Shown piece by piece: positions 3,455 to 48,493 of a DNA stretch of 64,000 bases (position 1 is the stretch's first letter; each line of letters opens with the position of its first letter). The translations under genes were made by a program, and so were the position numbers. Under the pieces are notes generated by a model. The model saw only the letters and a list, made by a program, of their open reading frames with translations, was not told where the DNA came from and did not search any database. Source of the DNA: Escherichia phage cardinal; the sequence record PQ567651.1; one strand, given 5' to 3'.

Positions 3455-3820
3455 TTATAAATCTTTTTTACGTTTAACATCGCTTGCATGACTGTATACA
3501 GCGATCCCATTATCACGGCAAAAACGGGAAAGATACGCGCCGCGTGAAAACTCTTTGCCCTCCAGGTTGATAACCTTGCTAAACTCTTCCAGGGCGACGG
3601 TATCAAAATGATCCCCATAACCATATTGAAACGGAACGTTAACGACTTCAATCAGTTTACCGCCGATCTCAACGTCAACCATCAAAGAGAAATAAGTATT
3701 ACCATAAGACTTTTGAAACCAGCGACGGGCGCTAATATGTACCGCTTCAATGCTGGATAGTTCAATTTTAGCAGTGTTAGCCAGGGTAGCATAAGCAGAA
3801 ACATTGATATTTTTAGCCAT
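3455..3820 (-). CDS. hypothetical protein
   Basis: 121-aa ORF in the co-oriented array. Confidence 0.5.
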   Translation of the reverse strand: MAKNINVSAYATLANTAKIELSSIEAVHISARRWFQKSYGNTYFSLMVDVEIGGKLIEVVNVPFQYGYGDHFDTVALEEFSKVINLEGKEFSRGAYLSRFCRDNGIAVYSHASDVKRKKDL

Positions 3821-4182
3821 AGTCTTTAATCTCTTTTGATTAGTTAGGAGTATTCCCGATAAAAGTTATTATGCTTGTACTATCGTTCGTTGTCAATAGC
3901 ACAAGACTAAAACTTTTAACGATAATCATCATAGGCTTTATTGACCTGGCGAATATAGCATTCAAAAGCTAGATCAATAGATTTATATTCACGGATATAA
4001 TCACCATAGGAAACCACATACATTTCTATAGCTTCCTCATATGCCAGGATGATAGAATCTAAACCTACGATCTCAGTCTTTGCAATAATAGCCATGCTTT
4101 TATTCCTTAGTAATGTTTCAATCTATATAAGCATTATAGCTTACTGATTTCAGGTGTCAAGTGATTTTTTATTTCACCTTAT

Positions 4183-4197
4183 GGGGCGTTGCCCCGC
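4183..4197 (-). promoter_or_regulatory. GC-rich palindrome, same family (degenerate)
   Basis: ggggcgttgccccgc followed by tttatgtggtacat and TGTCAA at 4233-4238. Confidence 0.35.
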
Positions 4198-4241
4198 TTT
4201 ATGTGGTACATATTACGGGGCTTGTTCGCATATGTCAAGCC

Positions 4242-4796
4242 TTACACAAGACAATTTTCATAATTTTTTAGGGCTTGTCTTTTTTCCTCTTCCGTCGGCA
4301 TGTATGGCTGGATCTCTTCCTCTTCCAGGGTAGGCATGATTTCTTCCTCTTCCTCCTGGTCGTCCTGGTCTTCCTCTTGCGCTACTGCAACAAGTTTATT
4401 GATCTTCTCCTGGGCTTTAATCAATTTTGCATCTAGCACCATTTTAGCGGTGTTGTATACCGTCCATGCCATGCGTTTTTCTTCGTATGCTTTATCTAGT
4501 GCGGCTAATTTAGCGGGATACTCTTCCAACACCTTAAAAGCCGGATCAATGCTGTATAAGGGATTATTTTTAGCGTCATCGCTTGGATCTGCGGCGCTTG
4601 CAATGTCAGCGTTGCCATTCGCCAGCCATCCAGGGCGAACGGATCGCGCCTTTGTGTTGCCGTTGCTCTTTGCCGCTCGATTTCCTATCTGCTCCCCGCT
4701 ATACCCTACCATGTGATCGATCATGTCATCTGGTATTATGCGCGGATCATTAGCGTCATGCTTTACCCAGGACTGGATCACATATTCACGCCCCAT
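4242..4796 (-). CDS. hypothetical protein with acidic glutamate-rich N-terminal region
   Basis: 184-aa ORF; poly-E tract in the N-terminal region (coded at the high-coordinate end on the minus strand). Confidence 0.5.
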   Translation of the reverse strand: MGREYVIQSWVKHDANDPRIIPDDMIDHMVGYSGEQIGNRAAKSNGNTKARSVRPGWLANGNADIASAADPSDDAKNNPLYSIDPAFKVLEEYPAKLAALDKAYEEKRMAWTVYNTAKMVLDAKLIKAQEKINKLVAVAQEEDQDDQEEEEEIMPTLEEEEIQPYMPTEEEKRQALKNYENCLV

Positions 4797-6685: not shown

Positions 6686-6835
6686 TATTGACAAGCCCAG
6701 GGATCGGGCTTATACTGTTTTACATACAGAAGAGGAAGCGCCACCCCCACGGCGTAAAGGCGGGGCTAACATACCAGGGCACTACTGGTTGGAAGGTTGA
6801 TCGCTGGTACAACGTATTTACAAAGGAGGTTAGCA

Positions 6836-7429
6836 ATGAAAAAAGTTTTTGGAGTAGGCATTAACGATAGTGCAAAGCCGATCAAAGGTTGTCGATTCTA
6901 TGCAACATGGCGCAACATGTTACAACGTTGTTATAGTGAATCATATCAGGACAAAAGGCCATCTTATAAAGGTTGTAGTGTTTGTGATGAATGGTTGACG
7001 TTTAGCACTTTTCGTGCTTGGATGGAACAGCAGGATCACCAGGGAAAACAATTAGATAAAGATATAATAACACCGGGTAATAAACTCTATTGTCCTGATC
7101 GTTGCGTATTTGTAACGCAAGAAATGAATAGTTTGTTAACAGTTACAAAGAGTAACAAAGGGGATCATCCTTTGGGTGTTTCATTTTTGAATCATAAACC
7201 ATTGCCGCGCCCTTATTTAGCAACAATACGTTATAATAACGTAGTGGAAAGATTAGGGTACTATGTAGATCCTTTATCCGCTCATTTGGCCTGGAATAGG
7301 CGCAAACGTGAAATAATCATAGAGATTATTAGTAATGAAACGGATTCAAGGATCGCCGCTGGCTTGGCTTTACGTGTTGACGCTCTCGATCTGGCTTATG
7401 AAAATAAAGCGGAAATAACTTGCTTATGA
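6836..7429 (+). CDS. putative homing-endonuclease-like / DNA-binding protein
   Basis: AGGAGG RBS then ATG at 6836; motif ATWRNMLQRCYSESY...YKGCSVCDEWLTFSTF, resembling the W..M..RC...Y.G..VC..W..F..F signature of phage HNH-associated proteins (assigned from memory). Confidence 0.4.
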   Translation: MKKVFGVGINDSAKPIKGCRFYATWRNMLQRCYSESYQDKRPSYKGCSVCDEWLTFSTFRAWMEQQDHQGKQLDKDIITPGNKLYCPDRCVFVTQEMNSLLTVTKSNKGDHPLGVSFLNHKPLPRPYLATIRYNNVVERLGYYVDPLSAHLAWNRRKREIIIEIISNETDSRIAAGLALRVDALDLAYENKAEITCL

Positions 7430-7461: not shown

Positions 7462-7682
7462 CTCTTACATAGACAGGAACGCCTACCAATGGCGCTAAAC
7501 TTGGTGATGATAGCCGCAGGGCATCGACAGCTATAATCGCCGGTAGCTCGTCTAAAATAAATTTGTAAAGAAATGTAAAGATAAAAATAATCGCTTGCTT
7601 TTGTTGTTGGTTATGCTATTCTTATTGTATGGCGAGGGGACACGGGAGCGCGAGACAAACACCGCCCCTGCGCGTTATTTTC

Positions 7683-7800
7683 TAAATGAGAAAATTCTCA
7701 TTTGCTAATGATTCTCATTCTCTTACTGAGAATGATTATCACTTACATAATTAAATGATAATGATTCTCATTTACAAATGAGAATGATTATCATACGCAT
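7683..7800. promoter_or_regulatory. cluster of AT-rich palindromes resembling Fur boxes
   Basis: tgataatgattctcatt and aatgagaatgattatcat match the GATAATGATAATCATTATC Fur consensus at about 14-15 of 19 positions; 3-4 overlapping copies. Confidence 0.35.
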
Positions 7801-7810
7801 ACCTATAAAA

Positions 7811-8035
7811 ACACGAAATTGAACTTTTCATTTTTGATTTTTCTACGGAAAAAGGCAAAAAAACTTTAAATAAACTGGGGAATTTTTAAAAAATTGAAGT
7901 TTTCATTTTCAAAATCTGGATAGAAATACGTACAAAAACTTTAAATAATTTTGACCAAACTTGAACTTTTCATTTTCAAAATTTGTACCCAAAAATCTGT
8001 AAAAACTTTAAATAATTTTGTACTTTTTATAAAAA
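7811..8035. repeat. three tandem ~72-bp direct repeats (iteron-like)
   Basis: Each unit contains ttgaa(c/g)ttttcatttt(c/t)aaaat and aaaaactttaaataa; AT-rich, no ORF. Confidence 0.6.
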
Positions 8036-8171
8036 TGATTTTACTGTTCTGTTATAAGTAGTAGTTAAGAGATAGTATGCCTTTTAAAGATCAGATACCA
8101 TAGTCAAACAAACAAATTAAATACTTTATTAACAGAGTACAGAATAATATTTACTCTGGATATATTATTCA

Positions 8172-8210: not shown

Positions 8211-8331
8211 ATAAAAATAAAAATTTTCAAAATATCAGTAAATATCAGATTGTGCTTTTAGATAAACAGCAAGGTCTGTATGCCATTTTCCTAAAAGATT
8301 TTGTCCTTTCCAACAGTCCTTATTTTCCACA

Positions 8332-8787
8332 TCACGATCCCACATTCCCATTTTTGATACCATAAATAGAATCATAAGGGCTTGCCTCTACGAACTCCTT
8401 ATCTGCGTAAGCGATAAGTTTATTTTTGAGATCTTCATTTTGTGTGTATTTAAGATACAAACCACGTTTGACAATCTTCTCCCGTAAAGAAGTCCAGGTA
8501 TCTTCATCATAATCTTTAACTAATCTGCCTAGACGTTTATAATATGCTTGTTCTTTTTCTCCTGTATATCTTAGATCTCCGGTTAAAATAGAAGATGCAA
8601 TATTGTAATCATAAAACAAACATGCTTTTCTCCACATCATATATTGTTCCACACAAGTAAATTCGACAGAACTTGTGATAGAATTATTATACTTGGGAGC
8701 TAAAGGTTCAATAAAAGATGATAGATACCAGTTGCTAAATTCATCTTTTGCCGAGAAAAAGAACACATACTTGTCAGTAATCCGCAT
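8332..8787 (-). CDS. NADAR (YbiA/DUF1768-like) domain protein, putative ADP-ribose N-glycosidase
   Basis: 151 aa; FFFS..DEFSN, CVEQYMMWRKA, YKRLGR, WTSLREKIVKRGLYLKYTQNEDLKNKL and SPYDSIYGIKNG align with the conserved blocks of E. coli YbiA. Confidence 0.65.
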   Translation of the reverse strand: MRITDKYVFFFSAKDEFSNWYLSSFIEPLAPKYNNSITSSVEFTCVEQYMMWRKACLFYDYNIASSILTGDLRYTGEKEQAYYKRLGRLVKDYDEDTWTSLREKIVKRGLYLKYTQNEDLKNKLIAYADKEFVEASPYDSIYGIKNGNVGS

Positions 8788-10185
8788 TTACACCTCCTTA
8801 TTGTATACTAATTTGCCACCATATTGTGTAACAATTTTTTGAAGATTTTCCAAATCAGAAACACTTACTGTTTCTGTATGACCATCTTTCAACTCTCTTG
8901 CCGTTAAAATACCAGTTTTTAATTTTTTCTTTATAGCTCTTTCAGCAGCCTTACATTGTTTCACTGTGCTAAAATCATATAAACAAATACGCTCCATAGG
9001 AAACATATTACAGCTATTTTGACGTTTTAATCGACTATCACTATTTTTAGCTATACCAAACTTAAGAGCAACTATAATATTATCATCCTTAACAATATTA
9101 ATATATAACTGCTGCTGACTATGACCAGCACACATAGGACAACCTCGACCGTGGCTTAATAAGGCATTAGCCCTCCCTGTCTGTTCCCCATGCACAAGAC
9201 AAAGATATTTAAACTTACCGTGACTTCTAGACGGTTTACCGATCCAACCTACCCAGACATACCCTTTCCCTTCTACTTCCTTTTTTACCCTGTAGGTAAT
9301 CTGATTTTCTGTATAGTGATAACTAGTTGCACAGCGGCAAGGGATACTTCCTTGTTTTAGGGGCCACCCTTTAGAGTAAAATTTACCATCGCAAACACCT
9401 GCTTGAACATATTCATCATGGGAGCAAACAGGACACTCAACCATCCATACTGCATCACGCTTGTTACGTTTCCCTGTATTGGTGAAGATAGTGCCTTCCT
9501 TAAATTTCCCTGTAGAAAAGAAATCTGCAATATGTTGATCGTCGGACATTGTTAGTGCCTTCCTTGTATTCTCATACCTACATAAAGGACAACCATAACC
9601 ACGTTTAAAATTGTTAATACTTGTAGTATCCCATTTATAACCACAGTGACACAACAAATCAAGTTTTGTTTTATGTCCTTTCCATTTTCCAACGTACCCT
9701 AACACCTGATACCCCTTCTTCTGTGCTATCTCTTCCAAGATCGGTAATTCTGTTTCCCATGCTAACGGTTTATTACTTGCACATGCCGGACAACCACGTC
9801 CATTCCTAAAATCAATAATGTTTGTGGTGTTCCACTCTCCATGTTTAGGGCAAATTATGCGAATTTTTGTTCGCACACCTCGCCACTCCTCGGCAAGACC
9901 TATAAAAGTAAACCCTCTTTCTTTAGCAATATCAACAAGGGAGATACATTCCTTTTCTTCTGTTACTTTTCTATGACCATTGCAATCGGAGCAACATTTA
10001 CCGCCTTTAGTTTTAAATACATTGATTATGGTACTTTCCCACTCTCCATGATCAGAGCAAGATAGCTTAAGCCTAGTCCTGCTACCTTTCCATTCACCAA
10101 CATAACCCAAGATTTGAATATTGTGATTTTTAGCAAGGGGTATTAATTCTTCTTTATATTGTTCCCATGATTTTAGTGCTACCAT
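8788..10185 (-). CDS. protein with five tandem zinc-ribbon-like repeats and a C-terminal T5orf172/GIY-YIG-like domain
   Basis: Five ~50-aa repeats of the form GY.G.WKG..T...L.C..HGEW......F..G.GC..C; C-terminus IVALKFGIAKNSDSRLKRQ...AERAIKKKL resembles the T5orf172 family. Confidence 0.5.
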   Translation of the reverse strand: MVALKSWEQYKEELIPLAKNHNIQILGYVGEWKGSRTRLKLSCSDHGEWESTIINVFKTKGGKCCSDCNGHRKVTEEKECISLVDIAKERGFTFIGLAEEWRGVRTKIRIICPKHGEWNTTNIIDFRNGRGCPACASNKPLAWETELPILEEIAQKKGYQVLGYVGKWKGHKTKLDLLCHCGYKWDTTSINNFKRGYGCPLCRYENTRKALTMSDDQHIADFFSTGKFKEGTIFTNTGKRNKRDAVWMVECPVCSHDEYVQAGVCDGKFYSKGWPLKQGSIPCRCATSYHYTENQITYRVKKEVEGKGYVWVGWIGKPSRSHGKFKYLCLVHGEQTGRANALLSHGRGCPMCAGHSQQQLYINIVKDDNIIVALKFGIAKNSDSRLKRQNSCNMFPMERICLYDFSTVKQCKAAERAIKKKLKTGILTARELKDGHTETVSVSDLENLQKIVTQYGGKLVYNKEV

Positions 10186-10223
10186 CTACTACTCCTTTTA
10201 TTAAATCTGGCATCAATACAAGA

Positions 10224-10246
10224 AAACCCGCCGAAGCGGGTTTTTA
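10224..10246. terminator. intrinsic terminator hairpin
   Basis: aaacccgccgaagcgggttttt with flanking A- and T-runs, between two minus-strand genes. Confidence 0.55.
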
Positions 10247-10259
10247 TTTGCTGGCTTAC

Positions 10260-11294
10260 TTAAAACACACTTGCCAAAGTTGCACCATTGGTGATAGTTG
10301 GTTCCAGAACAATACGGAAAGAATCTTCTGGATCATCACTAAACACAACGATTTTACCGCCTGTAATAAGGTCTGCTTTCATTTTTGTCGCATTCAATGG
10401 AATTCGAGCATCTCCTTCATCATCAAAAACCACGTAAGAGCTATTAGCAAGGGCTTCTTTAGAGTCTGCATCACTTGGAGATGACAAGTACACGTCTAGT
10501 GTGCACGAACCACCTAAAAAGATTGCAGGTGTGAAGTTATGCCAACTAGATACCCAGCTAACTTTCTGAAGTTTTCCATTAATAACAACGCTGCTGATAT
10601 CCCATTTATTACCACCACCTAAAGAAACACCCATCATAGAGATGCATTCTTTAAAGGATAAATCAGGGTAGAAATTAAGTTCTTCTACTATACCTTGGAT
10701 CACATCAAAGGACAACTCTAAACTTACATCCCAAAGTCTTTGGAAATTATCAAAGTGTGCTTTGTTATCCAGGTTTTTATCTAAATAGTCAATCATAGTT
10801 TCTAGTGAGATTTTATCATAATTAAAATTATAAAACACACGACTAGGACGATTTAAAAAGAATTCAGAGATAAAACCACTGTTTTTAGTCAGAATAAACA
10901 GTTTATTACCACTGCCAGTACCATCTAACAAAGTGAGAAGTGCTTCTTGATCTTGTTTCTTCTCATACACTTTATCAAACTCGTCAAAAATAATCACTGC
11001 TTTGTCGGTGATCTTGCTAATAAGTTCAATGAAATTAGCATCGCTGTAGGCTTGAGTAACCATAATAGTTGGAATACCTTCTTCTACAAGGTCACGACTA
11101 ATGAGTTTGGCTAACATAGTTTTACCACTGCCCTTAGTTCCTGTCAGGAGCAAACCTGTATTTTTACCTTGTGCACTCCGGCGATGGAATGTACGAATAA
11201 CGTGATTTGCTCGTTTTTCTGTTTCACCATACAGAACATCCGGTACACCTGTTAGATTACCACGGCTTAAAAAAATAATTGCCAAGGGGATCAC
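10260..11294 (-). CDS. AAA-type P-loop ATPase; N-terminal ~30 codons lie in another frame (to ~11388)
   Basis: Walker A GTKGSGKT and Walker B IIFDEFDK; clear paralog of 26400..27560; N-terminal homology continues in a different frame up to an RBS-preceded ATG at 11388. Confidence 0.6.
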   Translation of the reverse strand: MIPLAIIFLSRGNLTGVPDVLYGETEKRANHVIRTFHRRSAQGKNTGLLLTGTKGSGKTMLAKLISRDLVEEGIPTIMVTQAYSDANFIELISKITDKAVIIFDEFDKVYEKKQDQEALLTLLDGTGSGNKLFILTKNSGFISEFFLNRPSRVFYNFNYDKISLETMIDYLDKNLDNKAHFDNFQRLWDVSLELSFDVIQGIVEELNFYPDLSFKECISMMGVSLGGGNKWDISSVVINGKLQKVSWVSSWHNFTPAIFLGGSCTLDVYLSSPSDADSKEALANSSYVVFDDEGDARIPLNATKMKADLITGGKIVVFSDDPEDSFRIVLEPTITNGATLASVF

Positions 11295-11400
11295 GACTAA
11301 CAGTATAGAATCCAGGTGGAAGATAGTTAGATTCCACGCCCATATCTTTATTTACACTTACAATATCACCATAAATCGTGTATTTCATTTTAAACCCCTT

Positions 11401-13259: not shown

Positions 13260-13270
13260 AGGAGAGTGAT

Positions 13271-13624
13271 ATGAAAATTGTACACGATGAAATTCAATTT
13301 GAAGAGAGTGATCTTCTTGATCTAGATGTAGCACTAAGTAAACTGATCTACAATGCACTTTCTGCTTATCGTGCAAAAGTGATAGCCACAAACAATGTTA
13401 AAATTCCTAGTGGGTTACTTCGTCGGATGTACCCACACGCTAAAGGTGACTATCTACCTTATATGGAAGAACGAGCAGCAGAGCACTGGTTGGAAATTCT
13501 TGAAAAAATGGAGTCTTCTTTTAAGGACTCAACTCCACCAGAAGAAGTTAATGAAAAACAGCGGCAAGATCGTTTAGAAGGTCGTATTTTGTTTGCTAAG
13601 TATTTTCATAATCTGTGGATGTAA
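13271..13624 (+). CDS. hypothetical protein
   Basis: 117-aa ORF; AGGAG RBS. Confidence 0.45.
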   Translation: MKIVHDEIQFEESDLLDLDVALSKLIYNALSAYRAKVIATNNVKIPSGLLRRMYPHAKGDYLPYMEERAAEHWLEILEKMESSFKDSTPPEEVNEKQRQDRLEGRILFAKYFHNLWM

Positions 13625-13788
13625 CAAGGAGTAAACATGGTTATCTACAAAAATAAGTTCACTGGCTGTCTGCGTAAATTTATTGACAAAAAAGGGTATG
13701 TTTCTGTTGACAATGGTGTTACGTGGGTGCAAAATGGCACTTCAGAACAACTGATCAAGGCTTTACCTTACTATGAGGAGTTTACAAA

Positions 13789-15001: not shown

Positions 15002-15208
15002 ATGGATATTACTACACTAAAGTTTATACTTCTCTTCTTACTTATAGTTATAGGCTTAATTGTTATACCCTATCTATATGTCTACATGTTATCTCGTAAG
15101 TATGGTTATGAGCGTATACCATTTTACTATTTAATACCTGTCTTAGTTATCTATCTATTTCTCTTTTGTAGATATTGTCCTGAACTAGTCCTGAACATTG
15201 GAAGTTAG
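15002..15208 (+). CDS. hypothetical small membrane protein
   Basis: 68 aa, two hydrophobic helices. Confidence 0.4.
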   Translation: MDITTLKFILLFLLIVIGLIVIPYLYVYMLSRKYGYERIPFYYLIPVLVIYLFLFCRYCPELVLNIGS

Positions 15209-23791: not shown

Positions 23792-23819
23792 AAGCCAGCA
23801 TTAAGCTGGCTTTTATTTT
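23792..23819 (+). terminator. intrinsic terminator
   Basis: aagccagc-atta-gctggctt stem-loop followed by ttattttc. Confidence 0.55.
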
Positions 23820-23832
23820 CCACGGAGGATTA

Positions 23833-24690
23833 ATGACCCAAAAACTATATGAGGATGTAATCGGATTCCTCGAACAAACATCCGAAGAATTTACTCGTGA
23901 AAATGCAAACAAACCTGCAATGATTGTTAATACTCACCGAGATTTACTAGCAGGTATCCTAAGCAAGCACATGGCAATGACCCATATTTTACCTGAAGAT
24001 TTAGCAGAATGGCATAAAAGTGGGTATGGTCACATCCACGATTTAGATTATTTACTCTCACCTTTAACTAATTGTTGCCTGGTAAATTACCAAGATATGC
24101 TTGAGAACGGTTTCCGTATTGGTAATGCACATATTGAAAAACCAAAATCTATCGGTGTAGCGACTACTGTCCTAACTCAAATTATTCAAGCAGTAGCTTC
24201 TAGCCAATATGGTGGACAAACTTGTGCACATGTTGATACTGGGCTTAGTCAATACGTTAAAGCAAGTTTTAATAAAATATATGCCGATGTTGGCGATTAT
24301 GATATTGCTATGCGTATGGTAGATAAACAGGTCTATGATGCAATGCAAACTTTAATCTACCAGGTGAACACTCTAATGAGTGTAAATGGTCAGTCACCTT
24401 TTATAACAATTAGTTTAGGTTTGGATACCTCTGCTTTTGGTAGAATGATCACTAAAAACTACCTAATGGTGCACAAACAAGGATTGGGAAAAGATAGGGT
24501 AACTCCTGTGTTTCCTAAAGTTATCTTCTTCTTGGAAGATGGTGTTAACATGAAAGCTGGCGATCCAAACTATGATTTGAAGCAACTGGCAATGGAGTGT
24601 TGTGCTGAACGCATTTATCCTGATTTTATCTCTGTACCTTTAAACAAAGAAGTTACAGGATCTTCAGATGGTCGCGTCACAAGCATGGGT
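23833..24690 (+). CDS. nrdD: anaerobic ribonucleoside-triphosphate reductase, exon 1
   Basis: Aligns with E. coli NrdD from NENANK...RDLLAGI through GDPNYDLKQLAMEC to ...VTGS...MG; exon ends on U after the Gly codon. Confidence 0.85.
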
Positions 24691-24970
24691 AAACTATAAC
24701 TGCTCATGTAAAATCTGCCTAAACGGGGGAACTCTCAACGAGACAATCCCGTGCTAAACGTAACAGAACTCCCAACACAGAAGAAGGGGGGTACTATTAC
24801 GAAATGCCTAACGACTAGCTGTGATGAATGTAGCAGCGTAGGGTGTAAGCCTATGACACCCCAAATGGTAGACATGCTTTAAGCATGAAGATATAGTCTG
24901 ATCTGCATGGTGACATGCAGCAGCACGTAATGGTGCGGGAGTGGCCTTGCGAGCCACTTTGAACATAATG
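24691..24970 (+). mobile_element. group I self-splicing intron (ORF-less) in nrdD
   Basis: 280 nt separating two NrdD halves that sit in different frames; core element ctaaacgggggaactctc...gacaatcccgtgctaaa closely resembles the phage T4 td/nrd intron core; 5' exon ends in U and intron ends in G. Confidence 0.75.
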
Positions 24971-25912
24971 TGTAGAAGTTTCTTGTCATACTATGCAACA
25001 GAGCAAGGTGAAAAATATGATGGTCGTTTCAACTTAGGCGTAGTTTCTTTAAACTTACCTATCATTGCAGCAGAGTCCCGTGAAAAGGGCATCTTATTTA
25101 CTGAACTGTTGGAACAACATATGGAGATGGCGTATAAGGCACATATGCTACGTGTTAACCGTATTAGACATACCAAAGCATCTCAAAACCCTACATTGTT
25201 TATGGAAGGGGCTTTAGCTCGACTAGAAGCTAATGAAGAGATTGGTAAACTATTTGAAGGTGGTTATGCCTCTATTAGTATCGGTTATGTAGGTTTAGCA
25301 GAAGCTATGGAGATTTTATACCCAAATAACACCAATCCAAAAGCAATGGGTAAAAACATCCTTCAATATATGAAGGATATCTGTTGCACATTTAAAGAAC
25401 GTTCTGGTTTAGCTTTTAGTTTGTATGGAACACCAGCAGAATCCTTGTGCTATAAATTTGCCAAAGCGTTAAATGATCGCTATCCTGGCTCTATTGATCG
25501 TGACTATTTGACAAACTCTTTCCATCAACCTGTATGGATGCACACTACCCCGTTCCAAAAGTGGGATTATGAGGAAGGTTTTGCACAAATTAGTAATGGT
25601 GGGAACATAGGTTATGTAGAAACACCAAACCTTAAAAATAACTTGCAAGCACTGGAAACTCTTGTAGATTATGCCTACAATAAAATTCCTTATTTTGGCG
25701 TGAACCAACCTGTAGATCAGTGTTTCAAATGTGGTTTTCATGGTGAATTTAAGGCAACAGCTAAAGGCTTCGAGTGTCCAAGTTGTGGAAATCATGAAGA
25801 AGAATCCATATCTGTGATCAGAAGAGTGTCAGGATACCTTTCTGCTCCTAACTCTCGCCCTTATAATAAAGGTAAGATGCAAGAGGTACTAGAAAGGGAG
25901 AAACACTTTTGA
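24971..25912 (+). CDS. nrdD: anaerobic ribonucleoside-triphosphate reductase, exon 2
   Basis: Begins CRSFLS (E. coli MGCRSFLG), contains NLGVVSLNLP, the C..C...C..C zinc ribbon and glycyl-radical motif RRVSGYL. Confidence 0.85.
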   Translation, partial: CRSFLSYYATEQGEKYDGRFNLGVVSLNLPIIAAESREKGILFTELLEQHMEMAYKAHMLRVNRIRHTKASQNPTLFMEGALARLEANEEIGKLFEGGYASISIGYVGLAEAMEILYPNNTNPKAMGKNILQYMKDICCTFKERSGLAFSLYGTPAESLCYKFAKALNDRYPGSIDRDYLTNSFHQPVWMHTTPFQKWDYEEGFAQISNGGNIGYVETPNLKNNLQALETLVDYAYNKIPYFGVNQPVDQCFKCGFHGEFKATAKGFECPSCGNHEEESISVIRRVSGYLSAPNSRPYNKGKMQEVLEREKHF

Positions 25913-27967: not shown

Positions 27968-28624
27968 ATGACTGTTAAGCATATTTCTTTTGATGTATGG
28001 AACACTCTTATTACTGCTAATCCTTTGTATGCAGAAGAGCGCAACAAGGTAATTGCCGAGTATGCCTCTTGTTCTGAGGCAGAAGCAGCAACTGTATATA
28101 AAGAAGTAAAAACTCTCCTGGATTTAAGAGCAGAAAAAGGCATTTGTGGAACATCTAGAAATGCTTGGGAAACACTTTCTGCTCATTTGAACATTGATCT
28201 TGATAAAGTAGATGGGTTAAAAAGAGACTGTTTAGCAATGTTTATAAAACATCCTCCAATATTAAACCCTGAACTTTGCAAGAAGTTGGAAGAGCTAAGT
28301 TCAACCTATTCTTTGAGTATTAAAAGCAATACCAATTTTGTACCTGGTAGTTTCTTAGCTGTATATTCTGGCTTGACAAAATTACCATTTGACTTTATGC
28401 ATTTTTCTGATGAGTTTTGCTTGTGTAAACCAGATCCCAGGTTTTTTAAACTCTCTTTTGATGAAATGGTAACGTTTGATCTCGCACCAGAGGAGATCTT
28501 ACACGTTGGAGATAGTTTGATCTATGATGGAAAAGCTGTTGACATAGGGATGAAGTTCTGTCATATTATTAATCCAGAAGACTTGTTGGCTAAACTTAAA
28601 AAAGAGGAACTTATTAATGCGTAA
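27968..28624 (+). CDS. HAD-superfamily hydrolase-like protein with atypical motif I
   Basis: Motif I ISFDVWNTL (Asp nucleophile, but Trp where the second Asp is expected), motif III CKPDPRFF, motif IV HVGDSLIYDGKAVD. Confidence 0.55.
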   Translation: MTVKHISFDVWNTLITANPLYAEERNKVIAEYASCSEAEAATVYKEVKTLLDLRAEKGICGTSRNAWETLSAHLNIDLDKVDGLKRDCLAMFIKHPPILNPELCKKLEELSSTYSLSIKSNTNFVPGSFLAVYSGLTKLPFDFMHFSDEFCLCKPDPRFFKLSFDEMVTFDLAPEEILHVGDSLIYDGKAVDIGMKFCHIINPEDLLAKLKKEELINA

Positions 28625-29474
28625 TCAAATTCAACATTTTGCTAATATTTTTACTAACCTGAAGGAAGCAAAATTTAACATTGCAGATTATTCCAAGCTA
28701 AAGTTTGGTAGTAACCAGGCAGCAAAAAGAATGGGGCGCATTCTGGCTGAAAGTTTCTTTTCCAAGTATGAAGAACGACTGGTAAATGAAAGTTTTGTTG
28801 TTATTCCATCTCCATATAACTATGTGAAAAATGCAGCTACAGTGTTATCTGAACATTTTGTAGATCACCTCAACTACCTAATCTCTATCAAAGGAGGTAA
28901 AGCAGTGGAGTGGGATATCGTTCATCGTAAAGTGAGCTATATCAATGATTATGGATTTCTTAGCAAAGAAGATCGTAAGGCTTTGATCGATGGTGACACT
29001 TTCTCTATCAATCGTGATTTCTGGGGTAATAAAACTCTGATTTTCATTGATGATGTTAATATTACAGGAACGCACGAAGAAAAACTTATTGAAATTTTAG
29101 ACAAAGAAGGTGTTGAAAACGATACGTTTTTCCTGTACTTTGCAAAGTATGAAGGTACAGAAGCCAACACCGAAGCTGCACTTAACTTCAACTATATCAA
29201 TAACCTGGCAGCTTTTATTAAAATGATTAAGCAAGAAACTGATGCTAAATGTTTGGTTCGTCCTATTAAGTATCTAATGAGTCAAAGCGAAGTTGATTTT
29301 AAAATTGCACTTTCACAGCTTCCTTTGTATTATGTAGAACAACTGTTCTTTGGTTGCCTTGCAGAAGGCTACAATAACATTGAAAAATATAAAGAGAACT
29401 TTGATTTCCTGCGTCAATTTTTTGAAAGCAACATTATCAACAAATCTAATGTTAAAGGGGATTATTATGTCTAA
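28617..29474 (+). CDS. phosphoribosyltransferase (PRTase type I) domain protein
   Basis: PRPP-binding loop LIFIDDVNITGTH (hydrophobic-DD-xx-TG-T); overlaps the HAD gene stop, so probably co-translated. Confidence 0.55.
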   Translation: MRNQIQHFANIFTNLKEAKFNIADYSKLKFGSNQAAKRMGRILAESFFSKYEERLVNESFVVIPSPYNYVKNAATVLSEHFVDHLNYLISIKGGKAVEWDIVHRKVSYINDYGFLSKEDRKALIDGDTFSINRDFWGNKTLIFIDDVNITGTHEEKLIEILDKEGVENDTFFLYFAKYEGTEANTEAALNFNYINNLAAFIKMIKQETDAKCLVRPIKYLMSQSEVDFKIALSQLPLYYVEQLFFGCLAEGYNNIEKYKENFDFLRQFFESNIINKSNVKGDYYV

Positions 29475-30183
29475 TAAAGTAATGACTTTCGGAGATCCTA
29501 TCACCAATATTACAGAAAAAGATTTTGGGCGTGTAGCAACAGATAAAGATGGTGTCTTAAGAATTCGTGTACAAGGTATTACAGCACAGGATGAATATGC
29601 TGTGTATGTTTCAGGTCTTAACTATATTGATGATCGCATTACACAAAACTTTGCACTGATCGGTGGTGTAGAGAAAATGTATTGGGAAGATGAAATTGTA
29701 ACAAGTTATCCGGCAGGTATCATTGAGGTATACGGTGATCTTTTAGCAGCAGCCGAGAGAGGCGATATAGACGCTATAGCACACTGCTGTAACTGTTTTT
29801 GCACTATGGGTAGTGGTATTGCACCAAAAATTAAAAGCAAGTGGCCTGGTGCGTTTAAAGCAGATTGTGCCACTAAACGTGGTGATTATAAAAAATTAGG
29901 TACGTTTACCAAATATACAGAAAACAATTTGACAATTTATAATTTATATGGACAATATGGTTATAGTCGTCGTGAGGAAGGTAAGCGTGACCTGAATTAT
30001 GAAGCTATCTACAATGCGTTAGATAGTATGGGAGACGATGTTGTATCTTCAGGCGGTAAAGTTGTAGGTTTACCGATGCTGGGTTGTGGTTTGGCTGGAG
30101 GGTCTTGGAATATTGTAAAACTTATGATCGAAGAAACTCTAGTAAACAAAGGTTTAAATGTAATTGTTTACAAACTGAAATAA
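29467..30183 (+). CDS. macrodomain protein (TARG1/DarG-like), putative ADP-ribosyl hydrolase
   Basis: C-terminal ~150 aa align with human TARG1 as recalled: AIAHCCNCFCTMGSGIAPKIKSKW vs [23 protein letters not shown], and VGLPMLGCGLAGGSWNIVKLMIEETL...VIVYKL vs [26 protein letters not shown]...ITVYTL; N-terminal ~90 aa unassigned. Confidence 0.65.
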   Translation: MSNKVMTFGDPITNITEKDFGRVATDKDGVLRIRVQGITAQDEYAVYVSGLNYIDDRITQNFALIGGVEKMYWEDEIVTSYPAGIIEVYGDLLAAAERGDIDAIAHCCNCFCTMGSGIAPKIKSKWPGAFKADCATKRGDYKKLGTFTKYTENNLTIYNLYGQYGYSRREEGKRDLNYEAIYNALDSMGDDVVSSGGKVVGLPMLGCGLAGGSWNIVKLMIEETLVNKGLNVIVYKLK

Positions 30184-35846: not shown

Positions 35847-36640
35847 ATGTCCAATAAAATCAGTCTTAAAAAACGTCAAGAAACTCTTACCGTATCTCTG
35901 CGTAAGAAAAAGATTAACGATGTTGTTCTTCGTGTCGGTAGCGCCTTAGATATTTCGGGTAGTATGTGTGAGCTGTATCGTGATGGCACTGTTAGTGATT
36001 TTGTAGGTAAGCTGCTGCCGTTTGGTATGAAGTTTGATGATAATGCACAGATTGACATGTGGGCTTTCAATAGTTCTTCTTTTGAACTGCCTCCTGCAAC
36101 GGCTGATGTATATGATGATTATGTCGGCTCTTGTATGTCTAACGTTTGCATCAATGGTGGTACAGCTTATGCTCCAGTAATGCAAGAGATCTATGATACA
36201 TACTTCGGTAGTGTACCTATGAAAAATATTACACGCGAAGTCGTTGAGTATGAAGAAGTTCCGGCTAAGGGTTTCCTTGCTAAACTAACTGGTAAAAAGA
36301 ACTTGTAGAAGTAACACGTACTGTTGTAGAACAGGTTGTAGATACTGATGCACAAGTTGATCGTACTCCTGCAATGATTTTCTTCCAAACTGACGGGGAG
36401 AACATGGATACTTCAGCAGTACGTAGCTTACTGAACAAACACCGCAATACGCCTGTTTACTGGTTTATGGTTGGTGTAGGTAATGCAAACTTTAAATTCC
36501 TGAAAGACTTGGCAAAGGAATACGATAATGTTGACTTTATCGGTATTGCAGATTTGTCCTTGTCTGATGAAGAACTTTACGATAAACTGTTATCCGAAGA
36601 GTTTGGTGAGTGGGTTAAAAAATTTGGAGCAAAAGCGTAA
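35847..36640 (+). CDS. vWA-domain protein (TerY-like), reading frame interrupted by a -1 shift near 36291-36300
   Basis: MIDAS motif DISGSM in frame 0 (35847..36308); the vWA domain continues as IFFQTDGENMD in the -1 frame (36296..36640); junction at ggT AAA AAG. Confidence 0.55.
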
Positions 36641-48356: not shown

Positions 48357-48493
48357 CATCTCTTTGATTTTAAAGGAGTTTTTATGTGGAACAATCTGTG
48401 ATTGCCAAGGTTGTTCCGCACTTTTAAACCATTTCATAATTAGATGTTTGAACATCTAGAATAACGCAAAGACCATAAAAGATAGGAGAAAAT

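Follow-up and report, generated by a model that had tools for sequence, protein, structure and literature searches.

The locus at the centre of this analysis very probably consists of two functionally independent genes: a frameshifted orphan-antitoxin gene of the AdfN^Bas60 type, encoding a NADAR protein, and a homing-endonuclease cassette. It lies in the window, a stretch of 64,000 nucleotides from the record of Escherichia phage cardinal (PQ567651.1), a member of the genus Justusliebigvirus. In the proposed explanation, the intact adfN product would be a guanine-specific DNA ADP-ribosylglycohydrolase that strips off the ADP-ribose put on phage DNA by the DarT1 toxin of DarTG1, by which replication would be restored, and the extra A in a short A-run would leave a 151-aa product without the W-x-G-x-N-x-LG loop and the terminal helix. 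The endonuclease cassette would be an insertion that has the terminator of the upstream ATPase gene on one side and adfN on the other. Its five CapR fingers would serve for DNA recognition, and its C-terminal T5orf172 (GIY-YIG-like) nuclease, in which the catalytic Arg and Glu appear to be kept, may cut a related genome that lacks the cassette or carries another allele, whereupon the cassette would be copied in by recombinational repair; the recognition module would evolve fast, through substitutions as well as through whole units being gained or lost. This explanation rests on the domains, the orthology, the frameshift, the divergence hotspot, the unit polymorphism, the presence or absence of the cassette at one site and the independent distributions of the two genes, as analysed here, whereas the enzymatic and anti-DarTG1 activities of the orthologue are taken from the literature; that the truncated product is inactive and that the endonuclease cuts DNA and homes is what we infer.

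Both open reading frames listed in the first-pass annotation are present on the minus strand, 8332..8787 (151 aa) and 8788..10185 (465 aa) (Table 1). The stop codon of the endonuclease gene directly abuts the NADAR ATG with zero spacer, and the NADAR ribosome-binding site (AAGGAGGTGTAAATG) is located inside the last codons of the endonuclease gene; the earlier claim of co-transcription can therefore be kept as plausible. The two genes are probably co-expressed, which fits a functional link yet is no evidence for one. On its 5′ side the cassette is bounded by a terminator-like hairpin, situated between the ATPase stop codon and the endonuclease ribosome-binding site. The number of sites returned by a sigma-70 promoter scan was no higher than in shuffled sequence (20 versus 19.9).

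Table 1. Positions in the window of the two genes, their parts and their context
Feature	Position	Strand	Remarks and basis
adfN-type NADAR gene, 5′ part	8332..8787	-	151 aa: residues 1-145 of the 183-aa protein, six out-of-frame residues and a premature stop; ORF list, Pfam NADAR, comparison with PaulScherrer
Frameshift site	8351..8355	-	A5 on the coding strand (TTTTT on +); A4 in relatives
adfN 3′ part, other frame	8235..8354	-	Codons for residues 146-183 and the original stop; tblastn
Freestanding T5orf172 (GIY-YIG superfamily) homing-endonuclease-like gene	8788..10185	-	465 aa; Pfam, PHROG
T5orf172 nuclease domain	8791..9114	-	aa 358-465; Pfam and alignments
Five CapR-type zinc-finger DNA-binding units	9115..10185	-	Cys/His motif positions, repeat alignment, Pfam
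CapR unit R1	9970-10185	-	aa 1-72
CapR unit R2	9772-9969	-	aa 73-138
CapR unit R3	9568-9771	-	aa 139-206
CapR unit R4	9316-9567	-	aa 207-290; variant CPVC...CRC
CapR unit R5	9115-9315	-	aa 291-357
Intrinsic-terminator-like hairpin, AAAACCCGC-TTCG-GCGGGTTTT	10223..10244	-	Terminator scan, sequence
Upstream AAA+ ATPase gene	10260..11388	-	375 aa in relatives; Pfam AAA, phrog_2376; conserved
Macrodomain protein gene	29467..30183	+	Pfam Macro; context, outside the locus

The adfN-type gene and its frameshift

The assignment of 8332..8787 to the NADAR/YbiA family was borne out by Pfam (NADAR PF08719, E=9.2e-30, 104.5 bits versus a cut-off of 35.1 for the 151-aa ORF), the match covering profile positions 9-132 of 163 and stopping short of the C-terminal segment. 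As shown by tblastn, the product is 98.6% identical to residues 1-147 of the PaulScherrer protein, and once the frame is repaired the amino-acid identity to AdfN^Bas60 (PaulScherrer, QXV83846.1) is 98.9% over 182 residues, with the same synteny. On sequence comparison, the NADAR gene of the window is thus an orthologue of the validated AdfN^Bas60. The 151-aa ORF also matches the Phytophthora enzyme PnNADAR (8BAU; phmmer, E=5.8e-12), and from this alignment, together with the residue list in PMC11543638, the active-site equivalents were mapped to E47, K54, K84, R88, Y93, E95, W98, R102, E134, D139 and Y142. The counterparts of PnNADAR E43, K50, R79, E125 and D130 (E47, K54, R88, E134 and D139) are all present and invariant, and PnNADAR W133 is replaced by Y142 in the phage protein. 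The AlphaFold model of the 183-aa orthologue, that is, of the intact form and not of the truncated product, has a pLDDT of 96.5 and a terminal helix at residues 164-178, and Foldseek matched this model to 8BAU (E=4e-9, TM 0.78) and to YbiA (2B3W, E=1e-5); the intact form thus has the NADAR fold.

The 151-aa ORF is not the complete NADAR gene it was taken for, but a fragment cut by a one-nucleotide insertion. At 8351-8355 the window has A5 where relatives have A4, and this single extra A puts the codons out of frame at residue 145, so that the AdfN frame is not intact in the sequence as given, possibly through an assembly error. The 38 C-terminal residues of the 183-aa protein found in relatives are lost from the frame, and their codons lie in the ORF 8235..8375; residues 145-182 of PaulScherrer match 8354..8241 in the other frame with 97% identity (tblastn). 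The lost segment comprises four of the 16 invariant columns and the terminal helix, and includes W159, G161, N163, L165 and G166, which are invariant or near-invariant among 59 homologues; the 151-aa ORF accordingly does not contain a complete NADAR domain with the W-x-G-x-N-x-LG segment and terminal helix. Because it is truncated and lacks these conserved elements, the window copy may be inactive or mis-assembled. By analogy with the truncated AdfN of RB69, in which a one-nucleotide insertion removes 15 residues with the terminal helix and renders the protein non-functional, the 151-aa product, which loses 38, is predicted to be inactive. Residual activity is possible, since it retains every mapped catalytic residue. 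An automated annotation that took the 151-aa ORF for a functional NADAR protein would be mistaken, or unsafe at the least. We also considered whether the A5 run might be a site of programmed +1 frameshifting or of transcriptional slippage, and rejected both: the run is short, all relatives have A4 and a single uninterrupted frame for the protein, and two more genes of the same contig show like changes.

The extra A is somewhat more likely to be an assembly or sequencing error than a genuine and recent null allele, because it is found in a single assembly, in which two further A-run frameshifts are likewise private; the three runs lie at 8351-8355 (A5), 11269-11275 (A7) and 36295-36299 (A5). 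The 4-A allele occurs in six of six independent relatives and A5 only in the window; the 5-A allele had no match in an IMG/VR scan, and the 151-aa product was found on one contig only in Logan. The ATPase gene, frameshifted at the A7/T7 run at 11269-11275, is split over two frames (tblastn); after repair its product is identical to that of PaulScherrer (100% of amino acids), the run is T6 in all four relatives in which the locus extends over this position, and the 344-aa form is confined to the window contig. Apart from the frameshifts, the other two affected genes are 99-100% identical to forms on more than 300 contigs. An indel at 15190 was considered as a fourth case and rejected, since it is the common allele, equal to phi92 gp208, and PaulScherrer is the variant.

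The competing reading, to which we give a sizeable though smaller share of belief, is that the frameshift is genuine and the phage a natural adfN-null Justusliebigvirus with two more recently inactivated accessory genes, sensitive to DarTG1 like RB69. The insertion is present in the sequence as given, and all three private frameshifts lie in accessory or uncharacterised genes, whereas the genes for DNA polymerase, primase-helicase, NrdD, the UvrD-type helicase and the tail are intact, as would be expected under selection. Another disrupted NADAR form, a 74-aa C-terminal fragment (P0009), occurs on six other contigs, and RB69 shows that such alleles persist in nature. However, the three private changes are all one-nucleotide length changes in A/T runs of 5-7, the affected genes are otherwise 99-100% identical to proteins that are intact on hundreds of contigs, and the contig, at 71,993 nt, has just half the length of a genome. 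If the allele is real, it would be the second natural loss of an orphan antitoxin by a one-base insertion, after RB69, and would predict sensitivity to DarTG1.

The CapR/T5orf172 gene as a probable mobile cassette

The five tandem zinc-binding repeats fused to a T5orf172 domain, as described in the first-pass annotation, were recovered by Pfam in the 465-aa protein. CapR (PF21817) matches in five stretches (E=8.6e-50), in agreement with ten Cys/His knuckles that make up five zinc-finger units, and T5orf172 (PF10544) matches residues 367-453 with a modest score of 26.3 bits versus a cut-off of 20; DUF723 and DUF4379 gave sub-threshold matches. The protein also matches the PHROG family phrog_681, 'endonuclease' (E=1e-95), and its RefSeq relatives are annotated 'endonuclease'. 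A sequence search against solved structures gave chance matches to antibodies only. The architecture had been called unusual; it is in fact common and documented, being found in 501 phage records (tblastn) and described as a phage homing-endonuclease architecture (Barth 2023; Netter 2021).

The T5orf172 domain was aligned with those of T5 orf172, ICP1 gp165 and ukendt and, separately, among four alleles. The conserved positions are Y361, K375-x-G377, R385, E415 and T437-E438; K-x-G, R385 and T437-E438 are common to T5 orf172, and R385 and T437-E438 are invariant among the alleles, while the alignment with ICP1 gp165 is poor (17% identity). Judged from the motif rather than from structure, R385 and the glutamate would be the equivalents of the catalytic pair of Odn, in which the glutamate is E180 (PMC8263062).

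The endonuclease gene is a hotspot of divergence. At the protein level it is 84% identical, whereas the genes on either side reach 100% and 98.9%; its nucleotide identity is 74-92%, versus 97-100% in the flanks. The number of units ranges from three to five among alleles of 329, 390 and 465-467 aa, which differ by in-register deletion of units. The closest alleles (P0021 and P0019) are 99.4-99.6% identical, and a peptide scan of IMG/VR returned three loci only, with 78-80% identity. In the sister genus Phapecoctavirus, the cassette occupies an intergenic site in ukendt and is absent from the same site in a contig (L011) with the same hairpin-to-RBS junction. Both have an equivalent hairpin ahead of the insertion point, and the hairpin and the downstream gene are identical between the occupied and the empty site. 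By analogy with its family, the 465-aa gene would therefore be a freestanding homing-endonuclease cassette that cleaves DNA and homes.

Among the GenBank records of Justusliebigvirus, no empty site was found, such a site being seen in the sister genus only; some 53 of the 55 NADAR-bearing records cover the whole region, and the endonuclease gene is apparently fixed there, so that a domesticated gene would fit this distribution as well as a selfish one. Domestication of the protein, as a nuclease or a DNA-binding regulator that does not actively home, is nevertheless rather unlikely; its role would then lie in competition between phages or against satellites, as with ICP1 Odn, or in repression, as with PLE CapR. 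In favour of this reading, for which Odn and CapR are precedents, speak the constant position of the gene in practically every Justusliebigvirus genome sampled, the synteny in ukendt, and the conservation of the nuclease residues while the recognition units diversify fast, as an arms race would lead one to expect. That a single intergenic site of the sister genus is occupied in one case and empty in another is, however, the textbook mark of a mobile cassette, and some records of Phapecoctavirus and ICP1 contain several family members in a single genome.

The closest described parallels to this putative cassette are the CapR/T5orf172 endonucleases of the Vibrio phage ICP1 (gp165, gp174 and others; Barth et al. 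2023), which share the N-terminal CapR fingers and the C-terminal T5orf172 domain, are likewise freestanding and intergenic, sit at a boundary of divergence and change their unit number by repeat recombination. They differ in having one or two units in gp174 versus five in the window protein, and identity is about 30% over part of the sequence, the window protein coming from an E. coli myovirus. The PLE protein CapR shares the zinc-finger DNA-binding unit (CxxC...CxC), but has been described as a DNA-binding repressor of domesticated origin, akin to the N-terminal domains found in such endonucleases, whereas ICP1 Odn (gp88) is a T5orf172 nuclease with a catalytic Glu in which recognition is performed by a RepA_N domain and not by CapR fingers. 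The gene of the window thus displays in E. coli phages what was described mainly for ICP1, namely that T5orf172 endonucleases with CapR repeats lie at sharp divergence boundaries and that their unit number is altered by recombination.

Relationship between the two genes

The zinc-finger/T5orf172 protein had been proposed as a DNA-binding or nuclease partner of the NADAR enzyme. The zero spacing between the endonuclease stop and the NADAR start, the ribosome-binding site embedded upstream and the position of the gene pair behind one terminator hairpin would suit this proposal, but we consider it very unlikely in view of the homing-type architecture, the presence or absence of the gene at one site and the NADAR genes elsewhere that have no such neighbour. 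Homologues of the NADAR gene stand in six other contexts without it (among them 05F01, KPP-1, L010, L012 and L013, in which no CapR/T5orf172 gene adjoins), and in ukendt two genes separate the endonuclease gene from the NADAR gene. Conversely, the endonuclease family occurs in unrelated contexts in hundreds of phages (Vibrio, Aeromonas and T5-like), and the divergence of the two genes is very different. AdfN^Bas60, moreover, works alone when expressed ectopically (PMC11825919).

A looser connection can be imagined between the two genes, although its probability is low: by cleaving co-infecting relatives without the cassette or with another allele of it, the cassette, which adjoins adfN and contributes its ribosome-binding site, might drive the co-conversion of adfN, so that the anti-DarTG1 gene would spread and persist by hitch-hiking and the shuffling of the five units would record an arms race between alleles; with a genuine adfN-null allele, the locus would then be a homing hotspot at which a counter-defence gene is both gained and lost.

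De-ADP-ribosylation and the macrodomain protein

The link to guanine de-ADP-ribosylation holds, in that it has been demonstrated for the 98.9%-identical orthologue AdfN^Bas60 (PMC11825919). AdfN^Bas60 neutralises DarT1 and rescues RB69, T5 and Bas25 on DarTG1 (PMC11825919, Nat Commun 2025), with no effect on DarTG2 (PMC11825919); further assay evidence is given in PMC11257639. In the published tree, it groups with non-YbiA-like bacterial NADAR proteins (PMC11825919). The case that the first-pass annotation named as refuting it, an N-glycosidase of the YbiA type that acts on intermediates of the riboflavin pathway and has no part in DNA metabolism, thus does not apply to the orthologue. This alternative is hardly credible, since, although relatives are labelled 'putative YbiA-like N-glycosidase' or 'GTP cyclohydrolase II' and E134 is the Glu at the position that defines the YbiA-type subfamily in an older classification, the orthologue has experimentally proven DNA-directed activity against DarT1 (PMC11825919), the similarity to PnNADAR far exceeds that to YbiA (E=0.015 over 60 residues only), and YbiA itself hydrolyses guanine-ADPr in vitro.

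The idea of a coliphage NADAR protein that reverses guanine ADP-ribosylation by DarT1 is right in kind; its novelty was overstated, because the same gene family in the same phage group has already been published. The anti-DarT1 function of the AdfN^Bas60 family in Justusliebigvirus is already known, and the idea therefore opens no new question. AdfN^Bas60 and its counterparts in Bas61 and Bas62 come from the same genus, occupy the same ATPase-endonuclease-NADAR position and have identical active-site residues throughout; they differ in being intact (183 aa), versus 151 aa in the window (145 native residues, +1 A). AdfN^T4 (gp30.3) belongs to the same superfamily and likewise serves as an orphan antitoxin against DarTG1, but falls in another NADAR clade, with the T4-type His where the window protein has Glu134, and blastp found no connection between them; AdfN^T4 works only in a T-even context, whereas AdfN^Bas60 neutralises DarT1 by itself. 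The NADAR proteins of DarG1 (E. coli C7 and G. lovleyi) and of Phytophthora (8BAU), the activity of which is the hydrolysis of guanine-N2-ADP-ribose, share the fold and the Glu/Lys/Glu-Asp active site. In contrast to these, the NADAR gene of the window has no adjoining DarT1 gene, and its product has no DarG1-type N-terminal extension and only 27% identity.

The first-pass annotation had further suggested that the phage carries both classes of de-ADP-ribosylase, through a macrodomain protein encoded elsewhere in the window. The macrodomain is real (29467..30183; Pfam Macro, E=1.8e-7), its relatives in the PDB being SCO6735 (3e-15), TARG1 (3e-10) and DarG (1e-3), and tblastn connects it to the T-even tk.4 (RB14 tk.4, E=1e-8). 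The pairing is plausible because the protein is a distant homologue of the T-even Tk.4, that is, of AdfM, for which an anti-DarTG2 function in T4 has genetic support (HIDEN-SEQ preprint). The macrodomain together with AdfN would parallel the NADAR and macrodomain pair of T4. The macrodomain protein differs from T4 AdfM in its sequence (about 29% identity), in an N-terminal extension of 85 residues and in its translational coupling to a ComF-like PRTase, the upstream ORF (PRTase_3, E=1e-41), the end of which is overlapped by the macrodomain gene. In view of this extension and this coupling, the macrodomain protein may instead have a role in nucleotide metabolism.

Assignment of the adfN locus

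The window belongs to an E. coli myovirus of the Justusliebigvirus type (Stephanstirmvirinae); PaulScherrer (Bas60, locus tags bas60_) is 94–98% identical to it across most of its length, and the region of adfN, the NADAR gene, and the adjoining endonuclease gene is also matched by alia, PHB05, phi92 and about 50 others. Both genes named in the first-pass annotation are present in the ORF list on the minus strand, and their NADAR and T5orf172 domain calls are upheld by the HMM search. The adfN product matches NADAR (Pfam PF08719, E=9.2e-30), and the endonuclease product matches CapR (PF21817, E=8.6e-50) in five homology stretches, followed by T5orf172 (PF10544), which scores 26.3 bits where the cut-off is 20. 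The corresponding PHROGs are phrog_1017, of unknown function, and phrog_681, 'endonuclease' (E=1e-95). The assignments are not chance matches.

Features of the window discussed in the text
Feature	Position	Strand	Remarks
HNH endonuclease gene	6797-7429	+	phrog_953, E=4e-82
NADAR ORF (adfN)	8332..8787	-	151 aa
CapR/T5orf172 ORF	8788..10185	-	465 aa
AAA+ ATPase next to endonuclease	10260-11388	-	split by private 1-nt change, A7 vs A6, run 11269-11275
Group I intron	24645-24920	+	Rfam RF00028, 72 bits, E=2e-16
Macrodomain protein	29467..30183	+	macrodomain match
VWA-domain protein	35847-36640	+	264 aa in relatives; split into 153-aa and 88-aa ORFs

AdfN function and the frameshift in the window

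The NADAR biology of this gene is already known in this phage genus. Johannesman, Carlson and LeRoux named the Bas60 protein AdfN^Bas60 and reported that in E. coli it needs no second phage factor to neutralise DarT1, the toxin of the DarTG1 defence, that RB69, T5 and Bas25 return to full titre on DarTG1 when it is supplied, and that DarTG2 is unaffected (PMC11825919; also in preprint form). The enzyme class and DarT1 link proposed on first reading are borne out by these assays. As AdfN^Bas60 counters DarT1 and the window NADAR is far closer to the guanine-ADP-ribose hydrolase PnNADAR than to YbiA (phmmer), a riboflavin-type enzyme without DNA activity can be set aside. NADAR homologues occur in 716 phage records, among them myoviruses of Staphylococcus, Listeria, Enterococcus and Bacillus. 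The 47-kb Logan contig L012 (SRR6824189) carries two tandem NADAR genes at 3501-4483, with a Fic-domain gene nearby.

The domain call stands; a frameshift in the ORF was missed on first reading. The Pfam match of the 151-aa ORF ends at profile position 132 of 163, the PaulScherrer annotation at the same place is a 183-aa protein, and DNA alignment of the window (ATCAAAAATGGG) with PaulScherrer (ATCAAAATGGG) places one additional A in the run 8351-8355. The native frame is lost after residue 145 and is followed by six foreign residues and a stop, while the codons for residues 146–183 are kept in another frame within ORF 8235..8375 (97% identical); deletion of one A gives a protein 98.9% identical to that of PaulScherrer. 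The 151-aa ORF is a frameshifted fragment.

The ADP-ribose contacts of the Phytophthora NADAR (E43, K50, K75, R79, Y84, D86, W89, R93, E125, D130 and W133; PMC11543638) were transferred to the window protein through a phmmer alignment to 8BAU, and all 11 equivalents (E47, K54, K84, R88, Y93, E95, W98, R102, E134, D139 and Y142) lie upstream of the shift and are retained. A family alignment of 59 sequences has 16 invariant columns, and four of these (G161, N163, L165 and G166) fall in the lost 38 residues, as does the near-invariant W159. In a confident model of the intact 183-aa orthologue (pLDDT 96.5), which matches 8BAU (E=4e-9) and YbiA, the lost stretch makes up a conserved loop and the terminal helix 164–178. 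A one-nucleotide insertion likewise disrupts RB69 adfN, where the loss is confined to the terminal helix (15 residues); that gene is non-functional and RB69 is consequently DarTG1-sensitive (PMC11257639). From the lost conserved segment and the RB69 precedent, the 151-aa product is predicted to be inactive.

The additional A is somewhat more likely to have arisen in assembly or sequencing than to be a genuine recent null allele. IMG/VR contains no match to the 5-A allele, the run is A4 in 6/6 independent relatives, and the 151-aa form is found on a single Logan contig, SRR33749226_0 (71,993 nt), to which exact protein matches assign the window, the 183-aa form being dominant in a cluster of 108 sequences. 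The neighbouring ATPase becomes 100% identical to that of PaulScherrer after repair, its 344-aa form occurring on the window's contig only and the 375-aa form being carried by more than 300; the VWA-domain gene carries a private A5 vs A6 near 36299, the third private homopolymer frameshift of the contig, and intact versions of both proteins are encoded by more than 300 other contigs. It is these three private changes in A/T runs of genes otherwise near-identical to the intact forms of relatives that incline us to an artefact and weigh against a genuine recent null allele of adfN. Such an allele is nevertheless a reasonable possibility: all three frameshifts lie in accessory genes, with the essential replication and tail genes intact, and another disrupted NADAR form exists on six other contigs. 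This form, called on contigs of up to 148.5 kb, consists of the C-terminal 74 aa of the NADAR, a hint that adfN was disrupted upstream, and independently, in other Justusliebigvirus genomes. An indel at 15190, considered as a fourth private frameshift, proved to be the common allele.

The CapR/T5orf172 gene as a probable mobile cassette

The 465-aa endonuclease contains five zinc-finger units (R1–R5). R1, R2, R3 and R5 consist of a helix, C-x(1-2)-[H/C], about 17 residues and G-C-P-x-C, and R4 is a CPVC...CRC variant resembling the original CapR motif, CxxC...CxC. The C-terminal domain retains Y361, K375-x-G377, R385, E415 and T437-E438, which are invariant among alleles and common to T5 orf172, its Arg and Glu corresponding, by motif, to the Odn catalytic pair mutated by Barth et al. 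(E180A). The architecture, described at first as unusual, is a documented one: in a family of ICP1 homing endonucleases of the T5orf172 type, CapR is the domain that binds DNA (Netter 2021), and it occurs in 95 of 229 T5orf172 endonucleases, often repeated, with its number altered by recombination between repeats and with the genes located at boundaries of genetic exchange (Barth et al. 2023). The window's endonuclease adds a new member to this kind; relatives occur in 501 phage records (tblastn).

Nucleotide identity to PaulScherrer falls to 74–92% exactly within the endonuclease gene and is 97–100% on either side; the protein is 84% identical, compared with the near-complete identity of the repaired ATPase and NADAR that flank it. 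Alleles at the same locus have three units (92CQ, 329 aa), four (PHB05, 390 aa) or five (window and PaulScherrer, 465 and 467 aa), and in the alignment of the shorter ones R1 is fused cleanly and in register to R2 or to R3. In the sister genus Phapecoctavirus, the order in ukendt is ATPase, endonuclease, 121-aa gene, 59-aa gene and NADAR; in contig L011 it is ATPase, 121-aa gene, 76-aa gene and NADAR, the endonuclease being absent. Both have the same terminator hairpin (GCCCCGCAAGGGGC plus T tract) ahead of the junction and the same gene after it, and the roughly 1.2-kb cassette of ukendt sits exactly between them; an equivalent hairpin precedes the cassette in the window (10223-10244). We infer that the endonuclease gene is a mobile cassette whose product would cleave and home.

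The gene looks fixed within Justusliebigvirus, so that a domesticated gene, encoding a nuclease for competition or a regulator, is a live alternative. The role of NADAR partner suggested initially finds no support: AdfN^Bas60 works alone (PMC11825919), and no CapR/T5orf172 gene lies within 3.5 kb of NADAR in Klebsiella phages 05F01 and KPP-1 or in contigs L010, L012 and L013. It is unlikely that adfN owes its spread to co-conversion driven by the cassette that it abuts.

The macrodomain gene and other surroundings

The macrodomain ORF announced near 29467 is real. Its nearest solved relatives are SCO6735 and TARG1, with DarG more weakly related, and tblastn links it to T-even tk.4. As a 2025 preprint identifies T4 Tk.4 as AdfM, which acts against DarTG2, the proposed pairing of NADAR and macrodomain as de-ADP-ribosylases is plausible by analogy with T4. 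The start of the gene is overlapped by 8 nt by a ComF-like PRTase gene (PF15610, E=1e-41), so that the macrodomain protein may instead serve nucleotide metabolism. A HAD-like gene is annotated just upstream in PaulScherrer, and the region 28617-30183 (+) may be a small module that processes nucleotides or ADP-ribose. The N-terminal extension of the macrodomain protein, 85 residues long, is found in only about 62 phage records.

An HNH gene lies about 900 nt beyond adfN, so that mobile genes of the endonuclease type stand on both sides of adfN. GenBank Justusliebigvirus records all match only the flanks of the HNH gene, its closest DNA match (87%) is to the HNH endonuclease in Raoultella phage Ro1, and the exact protein was not found in a 15-billion-protein collection. 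The ORF-free stretch 7680-8040 between this gene and adfN holds three TGAGAATGATTATCA-type palindromes, two of which, lying within 70 nt, agree with the Fur-box consensus at 16/19 positions (0.06 expected per window), and three direct repeats of about 70–79 nt (7816-8036); these could be operators or promoter units. The group I intron interrupts nrdD, encoding the anaerobic ribonucleotide reductase (exons about 23806-24690 and 24971-25909); PaulScherrer nrdD has no insertion at this site. PaulScherrer bas60_0043, adjoining the DNA polymerase gene, is absent from the window (about 48386-48410), as are the small early genes bas60_0098, 0099, 0101, 0103 and 0115 (13265-13775 region); these differences are ordinary accessory-gene flux.
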